A DNA stretch of 62,994 nucleotides, filler included, from Reclinomonas americana ATCC 50394 (GCA_048213135.1; 5 parts of 2 records of this genome joined end to end with filler, not necessarily neighbours in it), one strand, 5' to 3'; counted from the whole stretch's first letter, positions 32,026 through 59,205 are shown. Made by a program: numbers and translations. Notes: a model not told the origin generated them from the sequence alone.

Positions 32026-34394
32026 TCAGCTGCTGCTCGGTGGTGGCGCCGGCTCGGCACACGCCACCGACTCGCCCGAGAACTGCTTCCACAAGATCTC
32101 CATCTCCCCCACCTCCTTGATGTGATGCACGGCCACGACGCCTTGCTTCAGCTGATCGCCGCCGTACACATCAAAGCCGGTAAAGGGCAGGTCGTACACG
32201 ATCTTGCCGTTGTTGTTGTAGAGGTAGCCGCCGAGGCGGACCTTGACGCAGTACGACAGGATGTGGTCGCCCTGCACGCACAGACACACAGAGTGTGAGA
32301 GAGAGGGAAAAGACGAAGACGACGACGACCTCGGAAAGGCGCAACATTGTACGGCGCACGCGGTTCCACACTGGGGAAATACTGATTGTGCCGGCGCTGC
32401 ATGTCCTCCAGATCCACATTGCACGACAGGATGGTGCCGTGGCGCACCAACTCACGCATTGCCGCCCCCGAGAACATGTATGTGCCGCCGTACACGATGC
32501 CCAGCAGCTCCCCCGAGAGCCACACGTCGGTGCCCACTGAGTACAGAAACAATATCAGCGCAAAAAAAATCGGACGCATGGCCAGGAGCACGCACGCGCA
32601 CCATCAATCATCGCCTTCTCCGTCTCCCACAGCAGCTGGAGCATGCCCTCCGGCTGCAGCACCATGTCGTCGTCCAGGATCAAGTAGAAGCGCTTGTCGG
32701 GGAAGGCGCGCCACAAATCAATGGGCGCAAACTGCATCTTGCGCTGTCCGGTGCTCTTGTTGGCGCGAAAAGGACACCCGGAGATCTTCTGAATGCCGAG
32801 CTCGGGCACGTCGCGATCCGACAGCACCACATGATGCGGAAACGAGCGCAGAAACGTGCGCTGCTGACACGCCACGCGCACCGTGTCCTGAAAGCGATGC
32901 GACACAATCGCCACGCCCACGTCGTCAAACGAGGGAGCGCGAGTGCGTGCACGCTCCACGTACGTTCCCCACGCGGGTGTAGGGCTGTAGACGTTGGAGC
33001 TGTGGAGTGGGCGGGAAGTGAGAAGAGTGTGAAGGCGGGTCCAGATATCGATGGGAGAGGGTGAAGGTGAAGGGGGAAGGGGAGGGAGGGAGAGAGGGAG
33101 AGAGGGTGATGGGAGAAAGAGAAAGTGCGTGAGTCTGTCTGAGTGTAGACTGTGAAAGTAGTATCTGTGCGCAGCCGTGTGTCCAGTGCCGATATCAAAG
33201 GGCAGAGACACACGAGGGAGGGGGGGGGGGGGGGGGGGGGGAGAAGGAGGCAGGGGAGGGANNNNNNNNNNNNNNNNNNNNAAAGAGAAAGTGCGTGTGC
33301 CAGTCTGAGAACTGTATTCGTGCGCAGCCATCTGTGTTCAGCGTCGATATCGATGGGCAGAGACACACAGAGAGGGGGGAGAGGGCGAAGGAGGCAGGGA
33401 GGGAGAGTGTGTGTGAGAGAGAGTGAAGGGAGAAAGAGAAAGAGAAAGTGCGTGAGGCTGTCTGAGTATTGCATGTCAGCGTGGTATCTGTGCGCAGCCG
33501 TGTTTCCAGTGCCGATATCGATGGACGGACACACAGAGAGGGGGAGAGGGTGAAGGAGGCAGGGAGGGAGAGAGTGTGAGAGAGAGAGAGGGTGAAGGGA
33601 GAAAGAGAAAGAAAAAGTGTCCGTTTGTCTGAGTATTGAACGTCGTGTCTGTCTGCTTCTCCGTCTGTGCGCAGCCGTGTGTGTCCAGTGCCGATATCGA
33701 AGGGCAGACACAGAGAGGAAGGGAGAGGGTGAAGGGTGAAGGAGAGAAAGGAAGAAGGGAGAGAAGGGAGAGAGAGAGAGTGCGTCTGAATATTGAATGT
33801 TCTGCCTCTGTCTGTCTGCGTGCATCTGTGCGCAGCCGTGTGTGTCCAGTGGTGATATCGATAGGCAGACACAGAGAGGAGGGGAGGAGAGAGAGGTCAA
33901 AGGAGAGAGAGCAAGGAAAAAGACAGACAGAGACAAAGAGAGCGAGAAAGAGCGACAGAGAGAGAAAGAGAGATTCTCAGTGTCTGCCTGTCTGTCTGTC
34001 TGTCTGTCTGCGTGTGCGTCTGTGTGTCTGTGTGTCAGTGTGTGTGTCAATGAGTGTGCGCGCGCTTACTCAACTCTTTCAACCGTCTCGGTCCAAACAA
34101 CGCCTCGACCGCTGCATCCCACCACGACAGATGCGGCAATCGCCTATGCGCATGCTGTGACTCACGCTCACACTCCAACGCTGCACCACCACCACCAGTC
34201 ACTCTCTCACTCTCATCATCAATGAGAAAAGGGCGCGTCAAGTGCGCGGCCGTGACTGTGAGCGCGTTGTTGTTGTGCTCGCGAGAGACGACGAGTGTGG
34301 TGATGGCGATGGCGATGAGAATGGCGGCGGGGAGGAGCAAGAGGCAGAGGAATGTGCGAAGGATGAACCGCCATCGCGTTGCCGCCACTGCCAT
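32026..34394 (-). CDS. Type II membrane glycosyltransferase, GT31 (Fringe/galactosyltransferase-like)
   Basis: N-terminal TM (FILRTFLCLLLLPAAILIAIAITTLVV), FPDKRFYLILDDD (DxD motif), YGGTYMFSGAAM, N|GDHILSYC and AVHHIK; four exons. Confidence 0.75.
33040..33880. repeat. Intronic tandem array of ~160-175 bp units (5 copies plus a partial)
   Basis: CTGTGCGCAGCCGTGT…CCAGTGCCGATATC…GGGCAGA at ~33165, 33320, 33487, 33665 and 33825. Confidence 0.85.
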
Positions 34395-34616
34395 TTGTGA
34401 TTGATTGTTTTTTCGAAAATTCTCGCGCGAATATTCGTGCTGGAATATGCGTGATTGCCTTTTTGGGTGAGTGGGTGAAGGAGGAGGCGGAGGAGAAGGG
34501 GGAGGGGAGGAGAGGGAAGGGAGAGGGGAAGGGAGGGGAGAAAAGAGAGAGAGAGATACACACAGAGAGAAAAGAGAGAGAGAGAAGAGAGAGTGAGTAT
34601 GTGTGAGCGTGTATGC

Positions 34617-34658
<42 letters not shown>

Positions 34659-34952
34659 TCTAGAGATCAAGAGAGAGAAAGGCAGAGAGACGGATGAGTG
34701 TGTGAGAAAGAGAGAAAGAGAAGCGCAAGAGGTGAGCGACTAAAACAGGAGAGAACGTGAGTCCCCGCGCGCGCGCCCTCGACGTCGATCATCTTTGGAC
34801 TGCATGAACACTTCTTCCACATCCCTCGCTTGGTTTGCGCAAAGAGTGTGGATATTGCAGTGCATGCAGTGTGATACGGTGGCACCGGCGACAGGAAGTT
34901 TGCTGTCCGCCAAAATGCATCGTCCTTCTTGTTGTCCGACAGGCGAGTCGTC

Positions 34953-37900
34953 ATGCGTCGGAGCGGAGGTCGTGCGCGGACTTTCGAGGAGGTCGTGCAA
35001 CAGTACGATGAGGCCTTGCAGTATTTTGACAGTGGTGATTATGCGACTGCGGCAACCCTCCTCGCTCGCTGCATGCGTGACTTTGAGGACTTGCGCGGCC
35101 TTGATGACGATGCATGGACTCTTGCGTGTGCACACAACTACGCGAATGCTCTCTTGAGTTCGGAAGATGCACAGAGCGCGTTGCTGGTGTACGAGGATGT
35201 GCTGGAGAGGAGGAAGCGCGTGTTGGGTGCGACTCACAAGGCGACATTGATTTCGGCTTCCTGCATGGGCAATGCGCTGAGGCGGCTCGGGCGGCATCGC
35301 GAGGCCATTGCATTGCTGCGCGACACGGCAGAGAAGCAAGAGCGCTATGGGGCCAAGGAGGACGTCAAGGATGTGTTGGCAACGTTGCATCGCTTGGCAC
35401 AGGCGCTCGATAAAAACAAGGAATATGAGGAATCGATCCGGATTTCACGTGACGTTGTGCGCCGGAGACGTGAAGTGCTGGGCGAGGATCACCCCTCGAC
35501 GCTGACGAGCATGTATAACATGGCAGTGACGCTGGCCGACGCAGGCGGTTTGGCCAGTCTGGAGGAGGCGTTGGAGATCTTTGAGGAGGTGTTGCCACTC
35601 CGTCGCCGCTTGCTGGGACCGGACCACGAACACACCAAGAACACGGCTGCCAGCATCACCTACACCCGAGCAGCCATTGCGACACTCCGCAAGGCTTCTT
35701 CGACGACTTCCCCATCTGGTACGTCAGTGATGCACTCTTTTATTCCTCCTCCACACTCTTGTTGTTCATCCGCAACTGCAGCTTCCTCTGCTTCTGCATC
35801 GGCTCCACCACCAGTGCGTTCTCCGGTGAGACAAACCTGACAAGTGCCGATGCTTACCCAACACTGACCTCTCTGTGCACCAACCAGGCAGCCAGGGAAC
35901 TCGGCCCGGGAACAGCAGCAGGAGGCAGCAAACGCACAACTTCAACGTAATCTGGTCGAACAGCAGCGCCTCGTGCAGCAACAGACGCAGGAGTTGACCA
36001 CGCTTCGCAGCCAGCAGTCACAATCGCAGGCCACCATCTCCCAGCTGCAGCGAGAACTGGCGCAACAACGGACGACGACGCAGCAGCACGAAGGAACCAT
36101 CGCGCAATTGCGGCGCGAGGTGGAAGAGCAACAGTCAGCGGTCCGCGAGCGGACTGCCCAAGTGGATGCATCGCAGCAGCAAGTGCAGCGACGCGATGCC
36201 ACCATCACTCAACTGCAGCGTGAGAAGAACAATCAGCAAGCCACTATCCGCCAGCGGATTGCCCAGGTGGAGGCAGCACAGCACCAGGCGCAGCAACACG
36301 AGGTCAGCATCGCGCAACTGCGGCGCGAGGCAGAGACGCAGCAAGCCACGATCCGCGAGCAGACTGCTCAGGTGGAGGCAGCACAGCAGCTGGTGCAGCA
36401 ACACGAAACTACCATCGCGCAATTGCGGCGCGAGGCGGAGGAGCAGTTACAGCGAGTCGGGCAGTTGACCGCTCAACTGGATGCAGTACAAGAGGCCGGT
36501 CGCGCAAGTGCAGCGAATGTTGCACGCCTGCAGCAGGAGCTGGAGGAGCAGAGGGCGCATGGGGAGCTGCAGCAAGAGGCCGCGATGCAGCTCCTGCGCG
36601 AGGAATGTGCGGCTCTTCGCGTCTCCCTGGAGCGAATGGACGAGCAGCGACAGCAAGAGTACGACCGAGCGCAACGACTGGCCGCTGATTTGGCCGCCGC
36701 GCAGCACGAGCTCAACCACCGCGGTGAGCATGAGTGAGTGTGTGGCGACGACTGCACATGCACTGCCCCACTAACCAGCGTTTTGCAGTTCCGCTCACGG
36801 CCTTTACCTGGGAGCAAGTTGGCGCCATCACATATGGCTTTGCTCGTCGTCTTGGCACGGGTGGACAGGGAAGCGTATTTTCTGGCACGTGGAAGGAGCA
36901 GCAGGTGGCTGTGAAGGTGTTCAACAGCGATGCGCCGTGGTGCATTGAGTCGTTCTCCAATGAGGTGAGAGTATTCGTGTGGGGAGACGCGGTGATCATC
37001 GCATTGTGTTGATAATTGTTTGTGCGGTACAGTTGGAGAAACTGAAGAGTGTGACGGTGCCCGGTGTGGTGCGCATGATTGGTTTCGCCGAGTCGGACCG
37101 CGGAGAAAAGTGCATTGTGCTGGAGGCCATGAGGTTGGTGGAGATCGAATTCTCTTGTTGCATGCAATTCTCCTGGCTCGTTTGTTGCTGATGCGCCATT
37201 CTTCTCTTGATCATTCTCAAGCGAGCACAACCTCGAGCACCGGTTGTTGGAGTATCAAGCACTCGGATTGCCCGTCATGGCCATCGAGGAACGGATGTCA
37301 TGCCTGCTTCGATGCTCGGAGATCGTGGCGGCGCTGCACAGGTGAGGCAGCGAGTGAAGTGGGAAGTCAGGTACATGTGGTCGTGTCTCATCGTCTCTTC
37401 TTGTTGTGCGCAGGATGGTTTGTGTCGCTGTCGTGCAACTTGTTGACGTCGTTTCTCACTCCCCTTCCCTCTCACTTTCTGTTCTCTCCTTCCCTCAGAA
37501 TGGTGAGTCTCTGTGCGCTCGGTTGTGAGTGGTGTGAGCTCGTTTATTCACCATGATTCGCAGTCATTCACCGCGACTTGAAGCCCGCCAACATCCTGTT
37601 TGACGAACGCGGCCAGGCATGCATCTCAGACCTGGGAATCGCGCACTGGTTCCGCACTGGCGGGGTGAGTCTCCTTTCCCATCCCTCGCCTTCCCACCGA
37701 TAATGTTCTCATGAGTGCACGTGTGGCGACAAGCAGACACACCTGTCGGTGCAGTTCGCCGGCGACCACGACTATGCTGATCCACAGGCACTGCGTGGCA
37801 TTCTGCGCCCCAGTACCGACGTATACTGCCTCGGATTCATCCTGCTGCAACTGTTCTCCGGTCAGCCAATTGCCGAGGTACACAAGTGGATCGAGGGAAT

Positions 37901-38387
37901 GGTGGAGGACGACGACGTGGCGAGACTCGATGAGGCCGCTGTGCTACTGGCCGACACCGCGGTCGGTCGGGGATGGCCCACGTCTGTCAATCGCCGTCTT
38001 GTGCGCTTGGCCATGCGGTGAGTAGTAAGCATCAGCCCCGTGCATGTTTGCACTGCGTATGTTGTCCCTCATGACTCAAGAAACAGCTGTGTCGACTATC
38101 GCCCCAATCGCCGCCCGAGTGCCGACGAACTGGTGACCGAGATGCGCGATCTCGCTGCGTTGTCGTGCCGTCGCGCGTGTGTTCTCTGTTACGATGTGCG
38201 CGACACTCGACTGCGTCCGTGCGGCCACGAGGTGTTGTGCCGCAACTGCGCGCAGCAAGTGGTCGAACGACGTGGCGAGTGTCCACTCTGTCGCACCTCG
38301 GTCACTCGCTTCGACTCGGGAGACGAATACGGATATCACACGATTGTGCTGGCGCCACTGTCGGCTGCGGCAGCTGTGAGCCCGTGA
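34953..38387 (+). CDS. TPR - coiled coil - RLK/Pelle(IRAK)-like Ser/Thr kinase - C3HC4 RING protein, copy 1
   Basis: Exons 34953-35718, 35782-35825, 35892-36723, 36789-36964, 37033-37133, 37222-37341, 37414-37417, 37499-37502, 37564-37664, 37734-38017 and 38087-38387 splice in frame. Motifs: [16 protein letters not shown] (42-aa TPR type), [35 protein letters not shown]…PCGH…CRNC…CPLCR. Confidence 0.9.
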
Positions 38388-39568
38388 TGACTGTTGGCAA
38401 GTGCAAAACATGTAATGACAGATTTCATCTGGCAAGTATCTCTCTTTCTATCTCTTGCCGCACCGCGTGCAGCTGTTAGAGGGAGTCTCAGACTGGCTGC
38501 AGGTGGCACCACTGTAGCTGCCGCAGCAGTTGCCGTTGCCAAGGTGAGTGCCAGCGGCCACGGCCGGGTAGTTGTTGCAGGGGTAGTGTGGCACTGGCAA
38601 GTCAGATCGGCCTCCGATTATGTGCACAAGAATGGGAGAGAGGGAAATAGAAGGGAGAGAGTGAGGAGCGATCAAGCAAGAAGCTGTGGGGCTGTAGCGA
38701 TGGAGATGATCAGTATCTCTTTCTCTCTTCATCGCTCATTCTCTCTCCTCTGTCACTTTCTCTTCGGCCCTCAATCACCTTGCAAAGAGCGATCGAAAAT
38801 AGGGAGTGCGCAGGTACAGAGACTGCGTTACAGTGCGAGGGGAACTGAGTGAGAGGTAGTGACTTTGGCGAGTGAAGATTGCAGTGCGTGCGAGAGGAAC
38901 ACGATCGTGAGGTGCGAACGAGGAGACTGAGCGCATGCGAGAGAAAAGACGTTCACGAGACGTTATGGTCGATCGATGAAGACTCCCTCTGCTCTACTCC
39001 ACAGATTTCCCTTTCTCGATTCAGCGATCGAAAGAGACTTGCATGCAGAGAGCACACACTCAAGACACTGTGGTGCACGTGATGTGCGAGATCGTGAGCA
39101 TCGAGGGAGACGAACGCGCGACGGTAACTGATCGCCGGTGAGATATGAGCAAGCAACCAGGCAAGAGTGTGAGAGCGAGTTTCTGTGGTGGTAAAGGATG
39201 ATGGCGAGTGGGTGTTGTAACGTGTTCGCGGCGATCTGGCAAGAACAGGATCTCGAACATATTTGTTATGGCACATGGAGGGAGGAAAGACCGACGGCAA
39301 CTGTTTCGATAATATCCATGCATTGCATAGAAGGGGAGCGACGTCGCTTGCTGTCTCAACGAAGCGACGTGAGCAGACTCGCCCTCGACGTTGATGGTCT
39401 TGCATTGGACTGCACAAACACTTCTTCCACATAGCTCGCGTGATCTGCGCAAAGAGTGTGGATATTGCAGTGCATGCAGTGTGTAATAAGGGGGCAACAA
39501 CCACAGGAAGTTGGTGCTGTCCGCCAGAATGCATCGTCCTCATGTTGTTGTCCGACTGTCGAGTCGTC

Positions 39569-42500
39569 ATGCGTCGGAGCGGAGGTCGTGCGCCGACTTT
39601 TGAGGAGGTCGTGCAGCAATTCAATGAGGCCCAACGGCACAACAGCAGTGGTGACTATGCCACTGCCGCTCCCCTTTACGGTACCTGCTGGAGAGATTTT
39701 GAGGACTTGCGCGGCCCCGACGATGAATGGACGTTGTTGTGTGCACACAACTACGCGCTTGCACTCTGCGATTCAGGAGATGCACAGAGCGCGTTGCCGG
39801 TGTGCGAGGATGTGCTGGAGAGGAGGAAGCGCGTGTCGGGTGCGACTCACAAGCGTACCCTGCTAACGGCTTCCTGCATGGGCGACGCGCTGAGTCGGCT
39901 CGGGCGTCATCGCGAGGCCATTGCATTGCTGCGTGACACGGCGGAGAAGCAGGAGCGCTATGGGGCCAAGGGGGGCGAGGATGTGTTGGCAACGTTGCAC
40001 AACTTGGCACTGGCGCTCAATTTCAACACGGATTACGAAGAGTCGATCCGGATTTCACGAGACGTCGTGCGCCGGCGACGTGAAGTGCTGGGCGAGGATC
40101 ACCCAGACACGCTGACGAGCATGCACAACATGGCATGTTCGCTGGCCGACGCAGGCGGCTTGGCCAACCTGGACGAGGCGTTGGAGATCTTCGAGGAGGT
40201 TTTGCCGCTTCGTCGTCGCGTACTTGGGCCGGACCACGCGCATACCAAAACCACGGTTGACCGCATTACCCACACCCGAGCGAAGCTCACCGCACTCCGC
40301 AAGGCTTCTGCGACGACCTCCCCATCTGGTACGTCTGTGACGCACTCTTTTTTGATTCATCCTCCACGCTCTTGTTGTTCATCCACGACTGCAGCTTCCT
40401 CTGCTTCCGCATCGGCTCCCCCGCCAGTGCGTTCCCCGGTGAGAGAAACTGACAAGTGCTGATGCTTGTCCGTCGCTGATTTCACGTGCACCAACCAGCC
40501 ACCACCGGTGAACTCGGCCCGCGAGCAGCAGCTGGAGGCAGCAAACGCACAACTGCAACGTGATCTGGCAGAGCAGCAGCGCCTCGTGCAGCAGCAGACG
40601 CAGGAGTTGACCACGCTTCGCAGCCAGCAGTCACAATCACAGGCCACCATCGCCCAGCTGCAGCGAGACCTCGCGCAACAGCGGGCGACGACGCAGCAGC
40701 ACGATGGAACCATCGCACAACTGCGGCGCGAGGTGGAAGAGCAGCAGACGGCTGTTCGCGAGCGGACTGCTCAAGTGGATGCATCGCAACAGCAAGTGCA
40801 GCGTCGCGATGCTACAATTACGCAACTGCAACGCGACAAGAACGATCAACAAGCCACTCTCCGCGAGCTGAGTGCCCAGGCTCAGCAACACGAGGCCACC
40901 GTCGCGCAACTGCTGTGCGAGCTGGAGACGCAGCAAGCCACTATCCGCGAGAGGACCACGCAGATGAATGCAGCGCAGCAGCTGGTGCAGCAACACGAAG
41001 CCACCATCGCGCAACTGCGGCGCGAGGCAGAGGAGCAGCGACAGCGAGTCGAGCAACTGACCGCTCAGTTGGATGCAGCGCAAGAGGCCGGTCGCGCAAG
41101 CACAGCAACTGTTGCACGCCTGCAGCAGGAGCTGGAGGAGCAGAGGGCGCATGTGCAGCCACAGCGAGAGGCCGTGGTGCAGCGCCTGCGCGAGGAATGT
41201 GCTTCTCTTCGAGTCTCTCTGGAGCGAATGGACGAGCAGCGCCAGCAAGAATACGACCGCGCACAACGACTGGCCGCTGATTTGGCCGCCGCACAGCACG
41301 AGCTCAACCACCGTGGTGAGTGCGAGTGAGTTTGTGGTGAAGACTGCAGATGCTGACCAGCGTTTTGCAGTTCCACTCACGGCCTTTACCTGGGAGCAAG
41401 TCGGCGCCATGACAAATGGCTTTGCCCATCGTCTTGGCACGGGCGGTCAGGGAAGCGTGTTTTCTGGCACGTGGAAGGAGCAGCAGGTGGCCGTCAAGGT
41501 GTTCGACAGCGATGCGCCGTGGTGCATCGAGTCGTTCTCCAATGAAGTGAGTGCTGCGTGTGTGCGGAGACCAGGTGATCATCCCCCTGTGTGTTTATTG
41601 CTTCTTGCTGGAATGCAGTTGGAGAAACTGAAGAGTGTGACGGTGCCTGGTGTGGTACGCATGATTGGTTTCGCCGAGTCGGACCGCGGAGAAAAGTGCA
41701 TTGTGCTGGAGGCCATGAGGTTGGTGGACATCGCGTATTCCTGGATGCATGCGGTTCTCCTGGCTCGTTATTGCTGATGTGCTGTTCTTCTCTCGTTGCT
41801 TCTCAAGCGAGCACAATCTCGAGCACCGTTTGTTGGAGTATCAAGCACTCGGTTTGGCCGTCATGGCCATCGAGGAACGCATGACATGCTTGCTTCGTTG
41901 TTCGGAGATCGTGGCGGCGTTGCATAGGTGAGGCAGCTGCTGCAATTAGAAGTCAGGTGCATGTGGTCGTTTCTCATCCTTTCTTGTTGTTGTACAGGAT
42001 GGTTTGTGGTGTCGTTGTGCAGCTTGCTGTTGACTTTGGTTCTCACTCCCCTTCCCTCTCACTGTCACTGCATTCTGTTCTCTCGCCTTCACCCAGAATG
42101 GTGAGTCTCCGTGAACTCGGTTGTGAGTGATTTGACCTCGCTTGTTAACCATGATTCGCAGTCATTCACCGCGACCTGAAGCCCGCCAACATCCTGTTTG
42201 ACGAGCGTGGTCAGGCATGCATCTCGGACCTCGGAATCGCGCACTGGTTCCGCACTGGCGGGGTGAGTCTCATTTCCCATCCCTCCCCTTCCCATCAATA
42301 ATACACTCATGAGTGTGGTGACTAGCAGACACACCTGTCGGTGCAGTTCGCCGGCGACCACAACTATGCCGATCCGCAGGCACTGCGTGGCATTCTGCGC
42401 CCGACTGCCGATGTGTACTGCCTTGGTCTCATTCTGCTGCAGCTGTTCTCGGGTCTGCCGATTGTCGAGGTACACAAGTGGATCGAGGCGATGGTGGAGG

Positions 42501-42979
42501 ACGACGACGCGGTGAGACTCGATGAGGCCGCTGTGCTACTGGCCGACACCGCGGTCGGTCGGGAATGGCCGACGTCTGTCTGTCGCCGTCTTGTGCGCTT
42601 GGCCATGCGGTGAGTAGTAAGCATCAGCCCCGTGCTTGTTTGCACTGCGTAGGTCGTCCCTCATGAATCGAGAAACAGCTGTGTTGATTATCGACCCAAT
42701 CGCCGCCCGAGTGCCGACGAACTGGTGACCGAGATGCGCGATCTCACTGCGTTGTCATGCCGTCGCGCGTGCGTTCTCTGTTACGATGTGCGCGACACCC
42801 GACTGCGTCCGTGCGGACACGAGGTGATGTGCCGCAACTGCGCGCAGCAAGTGCTTGAACGACGCGGCGAGTGCCCACTCTGTCGCACGTCCATCACCCG
42901 TTTCGACTCGGGAGATGAGTACGGATACCACACGATTGTGCAGGCACCACCATCAGCTGCGGCCGCCGTGAGCCCGTGA
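39569..42979 (+). CDS. TPR - coiled coil - RLK/Pelle(IRAK)-like kinase - RING protein, copy 2
   Basis: Same 11-exon structure and motifs as copy 1, frame intact; microexons at 41998-42001 and 42097-42100. Confidence 0.9.
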
Positions 42980-43989
42980 TGACTGATATTTGGAAGTGCA
43001 AAACATGCAATTACAGATTTCATCTGACAAGTATCTCTCTCTATCTCTCTTGTCTACTGCGTGCTGCTGTCAGAGGGAGACTGGACCGCTGTAGCTGCCA
43101 CAGTAGTTGCCGTTGCCGAGGTGAGTGCCAGCGGCCACGGCGGGGTAGTTGTTGCAGACGTAGTGCGGCACTGGCAAGTCAGATCGGCTGATGGAGACTG
43201 TGATTATGTGCACAAGAAGGGGAGAGAGAGGGAATTAGAAGGGAGAGTGTGAGGAGTGATCAAGCAAGAAGCTGTGGGGCTGTAGTGATGGAGATGATCA
43301 GTATCTCTCACTCTCTTCATCGCGCCTCATTCCCTCTCCTTTCACTCTTTCTCTCTAACACTCAATCATAGTGCAAAGAAGCGATCGAGGGAAGGCAAGT
43401 AGGGAGTGTACAGGCACAGAGACTCTGGAGAGGAACTGAGTGAGAGGCTGTGATTTGGCGAGTGAAGGTTGCCGTGCGTGCGAGAGAAACACGATCGTGA
43501 GGTGCGAACGAGCGAGACCGAATGCACACTAGAGAAAAGACGTTCACGAGACATTGTGGTCGATCGATGAAGACTCCCTCTGCTCTACTCCACAGTTTTC
43601 ACTTTCTCAACTCAGCGATCGAAAGAGACTTGCATGCTCTCTCTCTCCACTGGTATTCGATTTCCAAATTTGGATTATCGAATGCGCACGGCCCTCAAAT
43701 CCTGCACACGCGCGAGGACCCAACTCACCACATCGCCACCCTCTCTCTCCTCCTCCCCGTCTCTCCCCCACACCCACCTCCCCCTCTCCCTCTCACCAAG
43801 TTACTCCGCCACCATCAGCACGGAACAATTCCATCGAACGGCTCTACAATTTCGGAGATTGACGCGAGAGAAGACACACACACACTCTCTCTGCCCACAC
43901 TCTCACTCTGCGGTGGTCGTGCGCTCTGGTTGAATTAAGCCCCCTGATTCTCCTGTGCCACCCACATCCCGCTCCTGCGTGACCAACAA

Positions 43990-47757: not shown

Positions 47758-48483
47758 TCTTCTTCTTCTTCTTCTTCTTCTTCTTCTTCTTCTTCTTCTC
47801 TCTCACTCTTTCTCGCTCGCCTGTATCACGTGCCGTGTTCTCAGCTGTCATGTTCTTCGCATCGTTCTTTCCCCCTGCTCTTTGCCGCTCTCATCTTCCT
47901 CGCAGTTCGTGTGACATGCTTCTCTGATTGAAGGCTATGCACTGCGCTCTTGTGTGGTCGCTTCACTCGTTTTCTTTGTCTCATCGCGTTTGTCTTGAAC
48001 TTGATGCGAGGAGAAGGGGAGGCGATGGGGCAAGGGAGAGGGAGGAGAAGCTGAGGAGAAGGGAGAAGGAGGAGAGAGTGTGTATGCGCGCGCGCGTGAG
48101 AGGGAGATACTCACTGCCTTTCTTGCGGGCAGCTGTCAGTGTTGCTATCTTCTCTGACTGAATGCTGTGTTTCATTCACCAGCGGCTGTGTGTTTTTTCG
48201 GCGCTCATCTCGCGTCTCATTCTCTCACTCCCACTCTCTCTTCTCTCTCACACACTCTCCCTCTCCCTTTCCCCTCACGCGCCGTGACTTTCGTTGACAT
48301 GGCCACCGTGGCATCCATTCTGCCGCTCTTGACACCCTTTGTTTCCTTGTCGCTTTCTCTCGCCCACTCGCTCACTGTACGGTCTTCCTTCTCCCTCACT
48401 TTTCCTCTTGCCCCCTTTTCCCTTCTCCCTCACCCTTTCCCTCACCTTCCCCCCCTTCGCAGTTCGACTCCAAACCCGAATCG

Positions 48484-51400
48484 ATGACCTCACCCTCCCA
48501 AATCCCGCTCACCGGCGGCAGCAACCCCCGCTCCCTCGCCGAGATGGCCGACGAACCCCTCGACAAGATCGGCTGGTCCGTGTTCGGCAAGGTACGCACT
48601 CTTCCCCACCTCCCCCCCACACTCTCCTTCCATCACTCACTTTTCTTAAAACCCCGCAGGTGCTGCTGGCCGGCTCCGGCTTCCTCGCCGACGCCTACGA
48701 CCTCTTTGTGATCAACCCGGTGCTGGCGAATCTCGCGCTGCTGCACCCGCTGACCAATTTCGACAAGTCGCTCATCTCCTCGATGGCGCTGTGGGGAGCG
48801 GTGGCCGGCCAGCTGTGCTTTGGCCTGCTGGCCGACATTCTCGGCCGGCGCATCATTTTCATGTGCACCCTCGGCCTCATCACTCTCGGCTCGGTCGGCT
48901 CGGCGCTGTCGTTTGACACGCCCGCTTTCAGTGTGTACCAGCAGATTGCCTTGTGGCGCTTCTTCCTCGGCTTTGGGGTCGGTGGCGAGTACCCGCTGTC
49001 GGCCACGGTCGCCAACGAGGGCTCGACGAGGAGATATCAGGGGCGCATGATGGCCGCCGTGTTCTCCATGCAGGGCGTCGGCTCCATATTAGCCTCGGGT
49101 CTCGTCGCGCTGTGCCTGGCCATGGGCGCCAGTCACGAGTTCACCTGGCGGTTCGCGCTGGGGTTCGGTGCGCTCCCCGGGCTCATCACCTTCCCCTTCC
49201 GGTGCGCCATGGAGGAGACGGAGGCGTTCAAGGAGACGCAGGCGCAGGAGAAGAAGAGGGGGGCGGGGAGGGTGACCACGGTGGATCGGATGGTGGCGGC
49301 GGTGTTGCGTGATGAGGGAAAGGGGGGAAAGGGGGGAAAGGGGTAAAGGGGGAAGGGGGAGAAGGGGAGAGGGGAAGGAATAGGGGAAGGGTGGAAAGGG
49401 CATGGATAGGAGAGGGGTGAAGGGCGAAGAAAGAAGGGGAAGGAGTAGGGGAGGGAGATGTTGGAAGGAGAAGGGGAAGGAGAAAGGATTGGAGACGGTC
49501 ATGAGAGGTGGTTTTGTAGAAATTAGAGATGCACGCGATAGATGTGCGAAATATGTGTTGGGTGAATGGTAGGCTGGAATAGTCGCACATAATGACAGCC
49601 GAGTGCGATGTTGGAACAGGGGAAGGAGAGGGGTTGGAGAAGGTGGTGGTGAGAGATTATCGGTTTGTAGAAATCAGTGGTGCACGCGATAATTGTGTTC
49701 ACTTGTTGCATAATTCTATATGTTGGGTGAATGGTAGGCTGGAATAGTTGCACAGCTGTGAATGATAAGAGTGATGGTCGACTGCGATTGACTGAAGAGA
49801 TTCACGGAGAAGGTTGATGTTGACCGTGTGGTGTCTGAGGAGGAGTAAGAATGGCGGCACGCTGAAAGAGCGCATGACAGACAGGGCACAACCAATCAAA
49901 TGAGTTAGTGTGGCGACAGAGAAAGTCTGGCTCTTTCTCGATACGGTGTGATTCTCCGCACAATTTGTGCAAAGAAAGGTAGAAACTGAGTGACTGAGAA
50001 TAGAATGGCAGCGATCGGGTGTGGCGAGAGAGGCAATCTCCGCAATATAGAGGAGACAAAGAGTTTATTGATCGAGTGAGGCGCAGTTGAAGAGAGGACA
50101 TGCGGCACACGGAGGCAACTGATATGCACAGAGATAACCGGTTGAGTGCGTTCGGACAGAGGAGTGGATGGGAGCGCAGTTGCAGTGAGGCGTACAGAGC
50201 GTGGGATTATACTTGCGAGCGACGGCACAGAAAAGACTCAATCAGTAGAATGAGTTCAGAGTAACAGCACATGGAATGTTTGTTTGTGAATGATTGCGAA
50301 CGAGATACACGGAGACGGCACAGCAGACGTAAAGCTATTCAGCGGAGTGCGTTAGGATAGTTGAATGCCTCGTGGCGAGATGTACAGCGCAGTGTGCGAA
50401 CGACCGGGGGAGGGGTTCACGAGGAACGAGACTGCAGAGACACATCGTAGATTTGGAGATGGGTATCGGTTCTCTTCCCCTGTCTATTACCGCCGACGTC
50501 TAACTTCTACCACACAGGCGCGCCTTTTGGAAACCGATGCTGGGCACGGCAGGCGCGTGGTTCTTGCTGGACGTGTTATTCTACGGTATTTCCCTCCCTT
50601 TTCCCTCCCTCCCTCCCCCTTCCCTCTCTCCTCCCTCCCTCACCCACCTCCCACAGGCAACGGCCTCTTCACCGCCACCATCGCCCGCATCGCCGGCCTC
50701 GGCAGCTCCCCCGAGGACGACGCGCTGAATGCGCTGTACATTGGGTGCATGGCGCTGCCGGGGTACTTTTTGACGGTGATATTCTTGGAGAAGGTCGGCC
50801 GCAAGCCGCTGCAACTGTTCGGCTTCCTCATGATCAGCGCCCTCTACTTGGTGCTCGGCCTGGCCTACAGTGCGCTCCTCGATGTGCCGATTGTGTTTGT
50901 GATTGTCTACGGGTGCACGTTTTTGTTTTCCAATTTTGGTCCGAATGCCACCACGTATATTATGCCGGGCGAGTTTTTCCCCACCCATGTGAAGGTCTGT
51001 CGGGAGGGGAAGGGGCGTGAAGGGGAAGGGGGAGGAGAGGGAGAAGGGGGAGGAGAGGGAGAAGGGGGAGAAGGGGGAGGAGAGGGAGAAAAGGGAGAAG
51101 GGAGAAGGGGGAGAAGGGAGAGAAGGGGGAGAAGGGAGAGAAGGGGAGAAGGGAGAGAAGGGGGAAGGGGAGAAGGGGGAGAAGGGAGATAAGGGGAAAA
51201 TGGAAGAGGGAGCAGAAGGTGACTAGGGGAGTGAGGACTGGAAGAGCGAGCACGTGCGTAAGATAAAGGATAAGAGAAAGAGAGTGGGGAAGGAAGGGAC
51301 GAGAGCGGGAGAGTGACAGAAACGAAGGAGAAAAGAGGATGTGAAGTGATTGGGAGAGAGGACAGGGAGTGCGAGTGAGTGCACGGACGAAATAACAGAA

Positions 51401-58339: not shown

Positions 58340-59205
58340 AGAGATGGCGTCGGAGCGGCGACGTCGAGCGACGTCGGGCCCTTACGAGCGCGTACTCGTC
58401 GAGCCGGCGTGCATACAAGGTCGCGGTGCATGTGATGCACATGTTCTCGATGCGCTGCTGCATCCAGCTGCGACGGGAGACGTCACAGCATCGACGTCGA
58501 CACGGTCCCCGACGAACGAGCGTGCGCTCGGGGCCGGCAAGCAGCCAACACCATCGTAAGGAGTGTGTGGATGCGCCCTGTGCATAATCCAAGTGGCTGC
58601 TGTGCTTGTACGGCGACATAAACACGCGCAACCTCGACGTCGACTCTTTGCTAGACGAACGAGGCTGCTTATCGAGCCGTCAAGCAGCCTACATCATAGC
58701 AGGCGGCATGTGGATGGATTCTCTTCACAAGCCAAGCAGCTACAACGCTTGCACGGCGACACAGATGCATGAAACCTCTACATCGGCACGAGAGTCGACG
58801 AAGGAGCCTACGCTCGGGGCCGGGAAGCAGCTTGCATCATGGCAAGCAGTCTACGATAGCCTTCGCTGCGTTCGTCGAGCAGCTACAATGCTTGTACGGC
58901 GAAATAAGCAAATGCAACCTCGACGTCGACCCACCGAAGACGAACGAGGCTACACATCGAGCCGGCAAGCAGCCTACATCATAGCAGGTGGCACGTGGAT
59001 GCATCATCTTCAAAAACCAAGCAGCTGCTGTGCTTGTACGGCGATTGGGCAGGTGCAACTTCAACGTCGGAACACTCCTGACGAACAAGGCTGCATATCG
59101 ACCAGGCAAGCAGCCTATACCATGGTATGCAGTCAATGATAGCCCCTTCTACATACAACGAGTGGCTGCAGTGCTTGCACGGCGACATTATCGCAACTTC
59201 GACTG
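58340..59205. repeat. ~143-bp-period tandem repeat (about 6 units) between the divergent SDHAF2 and eIF3f genes
   Basis: GCCGGCAAGCAGCC-like core at 58403, 58533, 58676, 58819, 58961 and 59102. Confidence 0.85.

Follow-up and report, generated by a model that had tools for sequence, protein, structure and literature searches.

In plants, animals, fungi and brown algae, positive selection on the concave face of repeat domains is the signature by which recognition receptors are nominated. Clusters of the TRIM5alpha type also contain tandem paralogues with a rapidly evolving recognition surface, the order of domains in TRIM E3 ligases being RING, B-box, coiled coil and SPRY, with no kinase between the coil and the E3. 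CHIP/STUB1 consists of tetratricopeptide repeats (TPRs; three, of 34 residues), a coiled coil and a U-box E3, and has no kinase. In the TPRs of fungal NOD-like receptors (NLRs; NOD, nucleotide-binding oligomerisation domain), positively selected and polymorphic sites lie on the concave-side helices, according to the part of Dyrka et al. 2014 that deals with these repeats (PMC4986451). For Ectocarpus, the sections of Zambounis et al. 2012 used here describe NB-ARC-TPR and ROCO-LRR (leucine-rich repeat) genes as clustered, lineage-specific repeat-domain families with positive selection on the repeat exons, mapped to the concave face for the LRRs; in the same sections the SWAPSC analysis gives no positive selection in 'TPR-like' exons and an average omega (ratio of non-synonymous to synonymous rates) of 3.5 at the selected sites of TPR exons (PMC3341825). 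In kinesin light chains (KLC), the A helices line the peptide-binding groove and are almost identical between paralogues, with more variation in the B helices (PMC5642895). Here we describe a tandem pair of TPR-kinase-RING genes in a stretch of 62,994 nucleotides from Reclinomonas americana ATCC 50394 (hereafter the window), which is eukaryotic scaffold DNA with numerous N gaps and short GT-AG introns.

From N- to C-terminus, each predicted protein combines TPRs of the 42-residue type, a coiled coil rich in Q, a protein kinase domain and a RING finger of the C3HC4 class. The genes are intact products of a tandem duplication; we consider it probable that their predicted TPR groove has been under positive diversifying selection, and that the paralogues most likely bind different ligands. 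The features on which this reading depends are as follows, in positions of the window.

34953..38387, plus strand: gene copy 1, 935 aa, nine exons with an open joined frame and eight introns, all GT-AG.
39569..42979, plus strand: gene copy 2, 929 aa, its exons placed by aligning the DNA with that of copy 1, with an open frame and GT-AG introns.
34983..35702, plus strand: TPR domain of copy 1 (aa 11-250), made up of 11 helices in five repeats of the 42-residue type and a capping helix.
39599..40315, plus strand: TPR domain of copy 2, aa 11-249, from Pfam and AlphaFold2, with the same 11 helices.
Scattered in 34995..35675, plus strand: the codons of copy 1 predicted to line the groove, 30 in all, at canonical positions 2, 5, 9, 12 and 13 of six repeats.
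Groove residues of copy 1 in repeats 1-3: 15, 18, 22, 25, 26 / 58, 61, 65, 68, 69 / 100, 103, 107, 110, 111.
Groove residues of copy 1 in repeats 4-6: 143, 146, 150, 153, 154 / 185, 188, 192, 195, 196 / 230, 233, 237, 240, 241.

The two proteins differ far more in the TPR domain than in the kinase. The TPR region (alignment columns 1-247) shows 54 substitutions in 245 aligned residues and two gap columns, versus 20 of 292 residues in the kinase (columns 571-862; Fisher's test, p = 5e-7), while 38 of 266 residues differ in the coiled coil and 5 of 76 in the RING and tail. Within the TPR domain, changes fall on 38 of the 109 A-helix residues and on 10 of the 95 B-helix residues (p = 5e-5; DSSP helices of the AlphaFold2 model). 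An earlier note on this DNA had counted about 56 differences in about 247 residues of the TPR region and about 18 in about 285 of the kinase, figures close to ours; its limits are correct, 34953 being the start codon of copy 1 and ~40310 the point at which the TPR domain of copy 2 ends, and the six pairs of A-helix strings that it quoted for a clustering of changes are all present. Its description of the B helices as identical holds for the two strings that it cited but not for B1, B2 and B5, which carry 5, 2 and 3 changes, respectively; B3 and B4 carry none. Since B3 and B4 together show nine synonymous and no non-synonymous differences, their identity at the protein level is maintained by selection and does not result from recent copying.

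The groove positions were defined beforehand, the set being taken from the literature. In the excerpt of Magliery & Regan on which we rely, the concave face exposes positions 2, 5, 9, 12, 13, 33 and 34, and the ligand contacts in HOP co-crystals are made by positions 2, 5, 6, 9, 12 and 13 (PMC1261162); in 42-residue TPRs it is likewise the A helices that line the groove (PMC5642895). Repeats were placed in canonical 34-residue TPR numbering, with the capping helix as the sixth, the register of repeats 3 and 4 coming from the Pfam TPR_1, TPR_2 and TPR_8 coordinates and that of the others from the recurring H-P-x-T-L and G-x-Y-x-x-A motifs and an alignment to 4Y6W. On this register and the published structures, rather than on model coordinates, the 30 positions would line the groove in this protein. 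At positions 2, 5, 9, 12 and 13, 20 of 30 sites differ between the copies versus 34 of the other 208 sites of the TPR domain (p = 3e-8); position 9 is changed in every one of the six repeats, and positions 12 and 13 are each changed in four. When all five-position subsets of positions 1-34 are scored in the same way, 10 of 278,256 do as well or better, as do 3 of 2002 within helix A. Radical replacements are frequent in the groove (L>Q, N>L, F>N, K>F, A>K, V>C). The variable sites thus recur at the same few positions and are not scattered, and the divergence that the earlier note had ascribed to helix A can be narrowed to one face of it, that of the concave positions, since the other A-helix sites have an omega of 0.5-0.6 and the helix as a whole does not share the pattern.

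Selection was estimated from the two sequences with a pairwise codon model of the Goldman-Yang type, in which the synonymous rate and kappa were shared and the fits were made by profile likelihood. For the 30 groove codons, omega is 3.49, with a likelihood-ratio statistic of 21.3 against omega = 1 (p = 4e-6). Under F3x4, F61 and equal codon frequencies the groove omega is 3.7-4.7, the statistic ranging from 21.3 to 29.3 across fits. The six-position set gives an omega of 2.7 (p = 2e-5), and repeats R2-R5 alone give 2.9 (p = 0.001), the register among these being set by Pfam coordinates for R3 and R4 only. For comparison, omega is 0.24-0.29 in the B helices and 0.17-0.22 downstream of the TPR domain. 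A simple count agrees, the raw proportion of non-synonymous differences (pN) at groove sites being 31/71 versus 200/966 differing sites among the pooled neutral sites (p = 2.5e-5). An omega significantly above 1 at the groove codons indicates positive selection rather than mere relaxation, and the diversifying selection that had been proposed from inspection of the sequence is borne out in this pairwise estimate, with omega of 3.5-4.7 at the concave-position codons.

It should be noted that a number of points weigh against this interpretation. The groove excess is not significant when set against the TPR domain's own Nei-Gojobori proportion of synonymous differences (pS, 58/177; p = 0.07), so that its significance depends on the use of fourfold, intron or gene-wide silent sites or of the codon model. 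Each omega was estimated from a single pair of sequences for a whole class of sites, and the changes are not assignable to one copy or the other. The register of repeat 1, like that of the capping helix, was set solely by aligning motifs. Positions 2, 5, 9, 12 and 13 are, in the same excerpt of Magliery & Regan, also the least constrained positions in TPRs generally (PMC1261162), and some excess at these positions is therefore expected without adaptation. The codon model permits single-base steps only; omega would be inflated by mutations of several bases at once or by short tracts copied from unseen paralogues, and adjacent triple mismatches in non-coding DNA occur at about twice the expected number (8 observed, in 1323 three-base windows, and 3.9 expected). 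Lastly, the duplicated flanks at 34774-34952 and 38388-39046, with 20/179 and 69/630 mismatches (~11%), diverge less than the introns and fourfold sites (~20%); the flanks may be constrained untranslated or regulatory sequence, or the ends of the unit may have a different history.

Some of these points would fit another account, in which the concave positions are merely the freest sites of the TPR domain and have drifted neutrally, with no adaptive change of specificity. The same positions are the most variable across all TPRs in the available part of the survey (PMC1261162), the whole TPR domain has a Nei-Gojobori omega of 0.33, below 1, and the comparison with the domain's own pS falls short of significance. 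We nevertheless regard relaxed constraint as unlikely to be the whole explanation. Drift caps omega at 1, but the groove omega is 3.5-4.7 with p ≤ 4e-6 in the likelihood-ratio tests; groove pN (0.43) is also about twice the divergence of the 966 neutral sites (0.207), and changes of all three bases are found in 5 of the 30 groove codons versus 0.27 expected. In addition, the groove helices are the most conserved part of KLC1 and KLC2 (PMC5642895), and this near-identity indicates that groove variability does not arise automatically in TPR paralogues.

The composition of the changed codons bears on another alternative. All three bases are changed in 5 of 30 groove codons, 2 of 208 codons in the rest of the TPR domain and 2 of 688 outside it, and 13 of the 30 groove codons differ at two or three bases. 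Such codons could reflect a patchwork of short conversions, templated by other TPR repeats or by unseen relatives, or multi-nucleotide mutations, either of which would mimic a high omega. The excess of triple mismatches in non-coding DNA is in keeping with this, as is a 318-nt contig (described below) from a sequencing run of the same or a close organism, which differs from both copies and makes a further relative probable. However, imported tracts should raise the divergence of fourfold sites, and that of the TPR domain is not elevated (22/104 versus 74/328 downstream); the changes fall at single codons three to four residues apart, with unchanged codons between them and no contiguous tracts, and the window contains no donor sequence. 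A patchwork origin of the groove differences therefore seems to us quite improbable, and positive selection remains the preferred reading.

A contrast between the two halves of the gene could also arise if the halves differed in age, and silent divergence was therefore compared along the whole gene. Fourfold-degenerate sites, counted in codons whose first two bases are unchanged, differ at 22/104 in the TPR domain, 6/33 in the linker, 26/109 in the coiled coil, 30/143 in the kinase and 12/43 in the RING region, i.e., at 18-28% in the five regions (chi-square p = 0.83; TPR versus kinase, p = 1.0), with the highest value in the RING region. Of the aligned intron sites, 104/534 (19.5%) differ; all introns except one lie in the kinase half, and those within it differ at 7-32%. 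The longest identical run of neutral sites covers 29 sites (37982-38043; permutation p = 0.20), and no gene-conversion tract stands out in the neutral sites along the gene. The two copies share one age over their whole length, with about 0.21 raw differences per neutral site. The elevated synonymous and intron divergence in the 5' half that would have spoken for another history is not seen, and the evenness of silent and intron divergence argues that gene conversion of the 3' half is not the cause of the contrast between TPR domain and kinase.

Concerted evolution, in which conversion homogenises the coiled coil, kinase and RING so that only the TPR domain shows the true age of the duplication, would predict otherwise. 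It would accommodate the Nei-Gojobori synonymous divergence (dS), with values of 0.43 for the TPR domain but 0.25 for the kinase, and the 93-94% identity of intron 8 and its surroundings (~37860-38260). The fourfold sites are nevertheless as divergent in the kinase (21.0%) as in the TPR domain (21.2%), the introns of the kinase half differ at 7-32% (19.5% for all introns), the longest identical run is not exceptional, and the RING region, which should have been homogenised, has the highest fourfold divergence of all. This makes concerted evolution very improbable. The higher dS was rejected as a sign of an older TPR half, since the fourfold counts show no excess, and we take it to come from codons hit more than once.

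Taken together, these data are consistent with a scenario in which a multidomain signalling gene, with TPR, coiled coil, kinase and C-terminal RING E3, was duplicated in tandem. Since the duplication, purifying selection would have preserved kinase and RING along with the coiled coil and the TPR B helices; the predicted concave-groove residues of the A helices would have undergone repeated, radical replacement at more than the neutral rate. In this reading, the simplest one, scaffold, convex face and catalytic output stay constant. The paralogues would then bind different peptides or proteins in the TPR groove and have one output machinery in common. We infer that the groove captures the ligand, that the coiled coil may hold the protein as an oligomer, and that binding would be relayed through kinase activity and RING-dependent ubiquitination; that the copies recognise different partners, and that the signal runs in this direction, are likewise inferences.

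Exon models for both copies were built from the pairwise alignment and GT-AG splice sites and are thus sequence-predicted:

34953-35825, 35892-36723, 36789-36964, 37033-37133, 37222-37341, plus strand: exons 1-5 of copy 1.
37499-37521, 37564-37664, 37737-38017, 38087-38387, plus strand: exons 6-9 of copy 1.
39569-40438, 40499-41315, 41371-41546, 41619-41719, 41808-41927, plus strand: exons 1-5 of copy 2.
42097-42119, 42162-42262, 42329-42609, 42679-42979, plus strand: exons 6-9 of copy 2.

The TPR domain lies wholly within exon 1 and is followed there by a disordered linker rich in Ser, Thr, Pro and Ala. In copy 2 the acceptor of intron 1 is shifted 6 nt upstream compared with copy 1, so that PPPV replaces the PG of copy 1. 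The least certain part of the model is the 23-nt exon at 37499-37521 with the subsequent 42-nt intron, in the kinase between subdomains V and VIb; both are free of indels between the copies and lie outside the TPR domain. Skipping or reading through the 23-nt exon was rejected because it gives a frameshift or a stop, and a GTACGT donor at 35719 for exon 1 was rejected for want of an acceptor of matching phase. A pseudogene reading was also rejected, as the frames and all splice sites are intact in both copies.

In the TPR domain, Pfam TPR_10 matches copies 1 and 2 with 107.6 and 112.7 bits, respectively (cut-off 27.5), and TPR_12 with 102 and 111.5 bits (cut-off 30.1). AlphaFold2 models have a mean pLDDT (predicted local distance difference test) of 83.5 for copy 1 and 86.5 for copy 2, the latter with a predicted template-modelling score of 0.77 and the same 11 helices as copy 1, where they span aa 11-27, 30-48, 54-69, 73-90, 96-111, 115-131, 135-154, 158-176, 181-197, 200-221 and 226-250. 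The modelled fold consists of five A/B helix pairs and a capping helix, as in solenoids of 42-residue repeats. Foldseek and phmmer both place 4Y6C/4Y6W and KLC1/2 first for this domain, the top Foldseek match being 4Y6C/4Y6W (E = 6e-9; TM-score by target 0.75). The remaining domains of copy 1 are as follows.

35892..36723, plus strand: Q-rich coiled coil, exon 2, with internal 105-nt (35-aa) repeats (repeat family D1).
36789..38166, plus strand: protein kinase, aa ~571-862, exons 3-9, from Pfam and motifs in the translation.
38172..38309, plus strand: C3HC4 RING finger, Pfam zf-C3HC4_3 with 42.1 bits (cut-off 27).

Pfam coiled-coil matches to exon 2 are weak and below cut-off. Its internal 105-nt repeats, about 74-79% alike, lie at 36080-36490 in copy 1 and 40692-41082 in copy 2, and the array changes in length, copy 2 being without 21 nt (7 aa). 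In the kinase, Pfam Pkinase matches exon 7 (32.5 bits; cut-off 31.7) and PK_Tyr_Ser-Thr matches exon 3 (E = 0.0013); exons 4-6 were assigned to kinase subdomains by reading of the translation, and exon 8 has no Pfam match. The G-loop, the VAxK lysine, HRD and a DFG-type motif in the form DLG can be read in the translations of both copies, and YADPQ stands in place of an APE motif, which is absent. By profile and motifs the protein belongs to the eukaryotic protein kinase superfamily, with a predicted activity. All eight Cys/His ligands of the RING pattern (C-x2-C...C-x-H...C-x2-C...C-x2-C) are the same in both copies.

A homologue search with exon 1 among longer proteins returned generic TPR_10/12 proteins only, at 27-43% identity, and the best identity among 1.84 billion representative proteins was 44%. 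Kinase exon 8, from the C-lobe, had no match in the protein libraries. The libraries searched contain neither the window's own proteins nor those of close relatives. No NACHT or NB-ARC (NOD) domain was found in Pfam scans of exons 1, 2, 3, 7, 8 and 9, whose matches were confined to TPR, kinase and RING profiles and the weak coiled-coil ones mentioned above.

The duplication extends beyond the genes on both sides:

34774..39046, plus strand: duplication unit of copy 1, comprising the gene, 179 nt upstream and ~660 nt downstream, from its blastn self-match to the unit of copy 2.
39380..43637, plus strand: duplication unit of copy 2, from its blastn self-match to the unit of copy 1 and from repeat families.

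The units are 85.1% identical across 4338 columns in a blastn self-comparison of the window, and the repeat families D3-D15, present in both, are spaced 4577-4613 nt apart. No third copy was found in the window, either at the DNA level (blastn self-comparison) or at the protein level (tblastn). Searches of sequencing runs with words from the window listed no RNA run; a public DNA run contained 5% of the searched words, and its reads gave two contigs only. One of these, of 462 nt, is identical to copy 2. The other, of 318 nt, covers 37551-37840 (kinase exon 7, intron 7 and exon 8) and is 94% identical to copy 1, from which it departs by 18 letters and 2 gaps, but it matches neither copy exactly: of the 14 variant places listed, six carry the letter of copy 2 and eight a letter peculiar to the contig. 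Judged by this sequence, it is probably a third member of the family or a divergent allele.

Immediately upstream of copy 1, at 32200-34740, lies a long stretch of low-complexity DNA rich in CT/GA and CA, which reads as SLSLSL or THTHTH in several frames and includes an N gap and a repeat spaced at 323 nt (33074-33566); similar simple sequence recurs throughout the window. Elsewhere, a partial open reading frame at 48333-49346 (plus strand) belongs to a major facilitator superfamily/sugar-transporter gene (Sugar_tr, 75.7 bits), and the best database relatives of this piece are protist transcriptome proteins (48-56% identity). A five-copy tandem array with a unit of ~107 nt lies at 58510-59185, its copies spaced 141-143 nt apart and 66-85% alike.

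What the pair signifies depends largely on the size of the family. If only two copies exist, they are a neat example of ordinary post-duplication divergence. Should further members exist and more sequences bear out the signal, the family would represent a new architecture among fast-evolving recognition proteins, the familiar concave-face signature being found here without the usual NOD module, on a TPR sensor linked by the coiled coil to kinase and RING E3 modules. More tentatively, the genes could belong to a lineage-restricted family of NOD-less intracellular receptors, whose hypervariable TPR groove senses non-self or pathogen proteins and signals to the built-in kinase and RING E3. We consider this doubtful at present, but if it were true, a function like that of TRIM5 or NLRs would have been assembled from different parts, and the third, 318-nt sequence would be one of a larger, diversifying repertoire. 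To our knowledge, no innate immune receptors have been described in the protist lineage concerned. Irrespective of these possibilities, the paralogues share 93% of their kinase residues and differ at two thirds of the predicted groove residues, which makes them well suited to a study of TPR specificity.

Comparison with the known systems places this pair between several of them. With CHIP and the TRIM proteins it shares a recognition domain joined via a coiled coil to a RING-type E3, a resemblance of design and not of membership; unlike CHIP-like ligases, it has a zinc RING in place of the U-box and five repeats of the 42-residue type with a cap. KLC1/KLC2, from the family of 42-residue repeats, match it in repeat type and fold (Foldseek ranks 3-12; phmmer E = 8e-12), yet the KLC pair shows the opposite pattern of divergence and has neither a kinase nor a RING. 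In Ectocarpus, as far as the cited sections go, single-repeat exons are shuffled and an NB-ARC is present (PMC3341825), whereas here the whole TPR domain occupies a single exon and no NB-ARC was found. The NB-ARC/TPR genes of Podospora anserina, which are NLR-like and of the STAND (signal transduction ATPases with numerous domains) class, have 42-residue TPR repeats as here and provide the best PDB matches (4Y6C, 4Y6W). These crystallised Podospora constructs consist of nearly identical repeats; in the present pair the repeats are not nearly identical to each other, and their number is the same in both copies. The diversity also lies between two tandem paralogues, rather than among alleles or shuffled repeats as in the fungal genes, and in place of the NACHT or NB-ARC of the fungal NLR-like proteins the predicted output modules are a kinase and a RING. 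On its predicted domains the protein is not an NLR, the defining NOD domain being absent. What it does appear to share with the fungal NLR-like TPRs, in the part of that work that treats them, is the concentration of change on the concave side (PMC4986451), and the comparison with immune receptors is meant as a likeness of pattern only.

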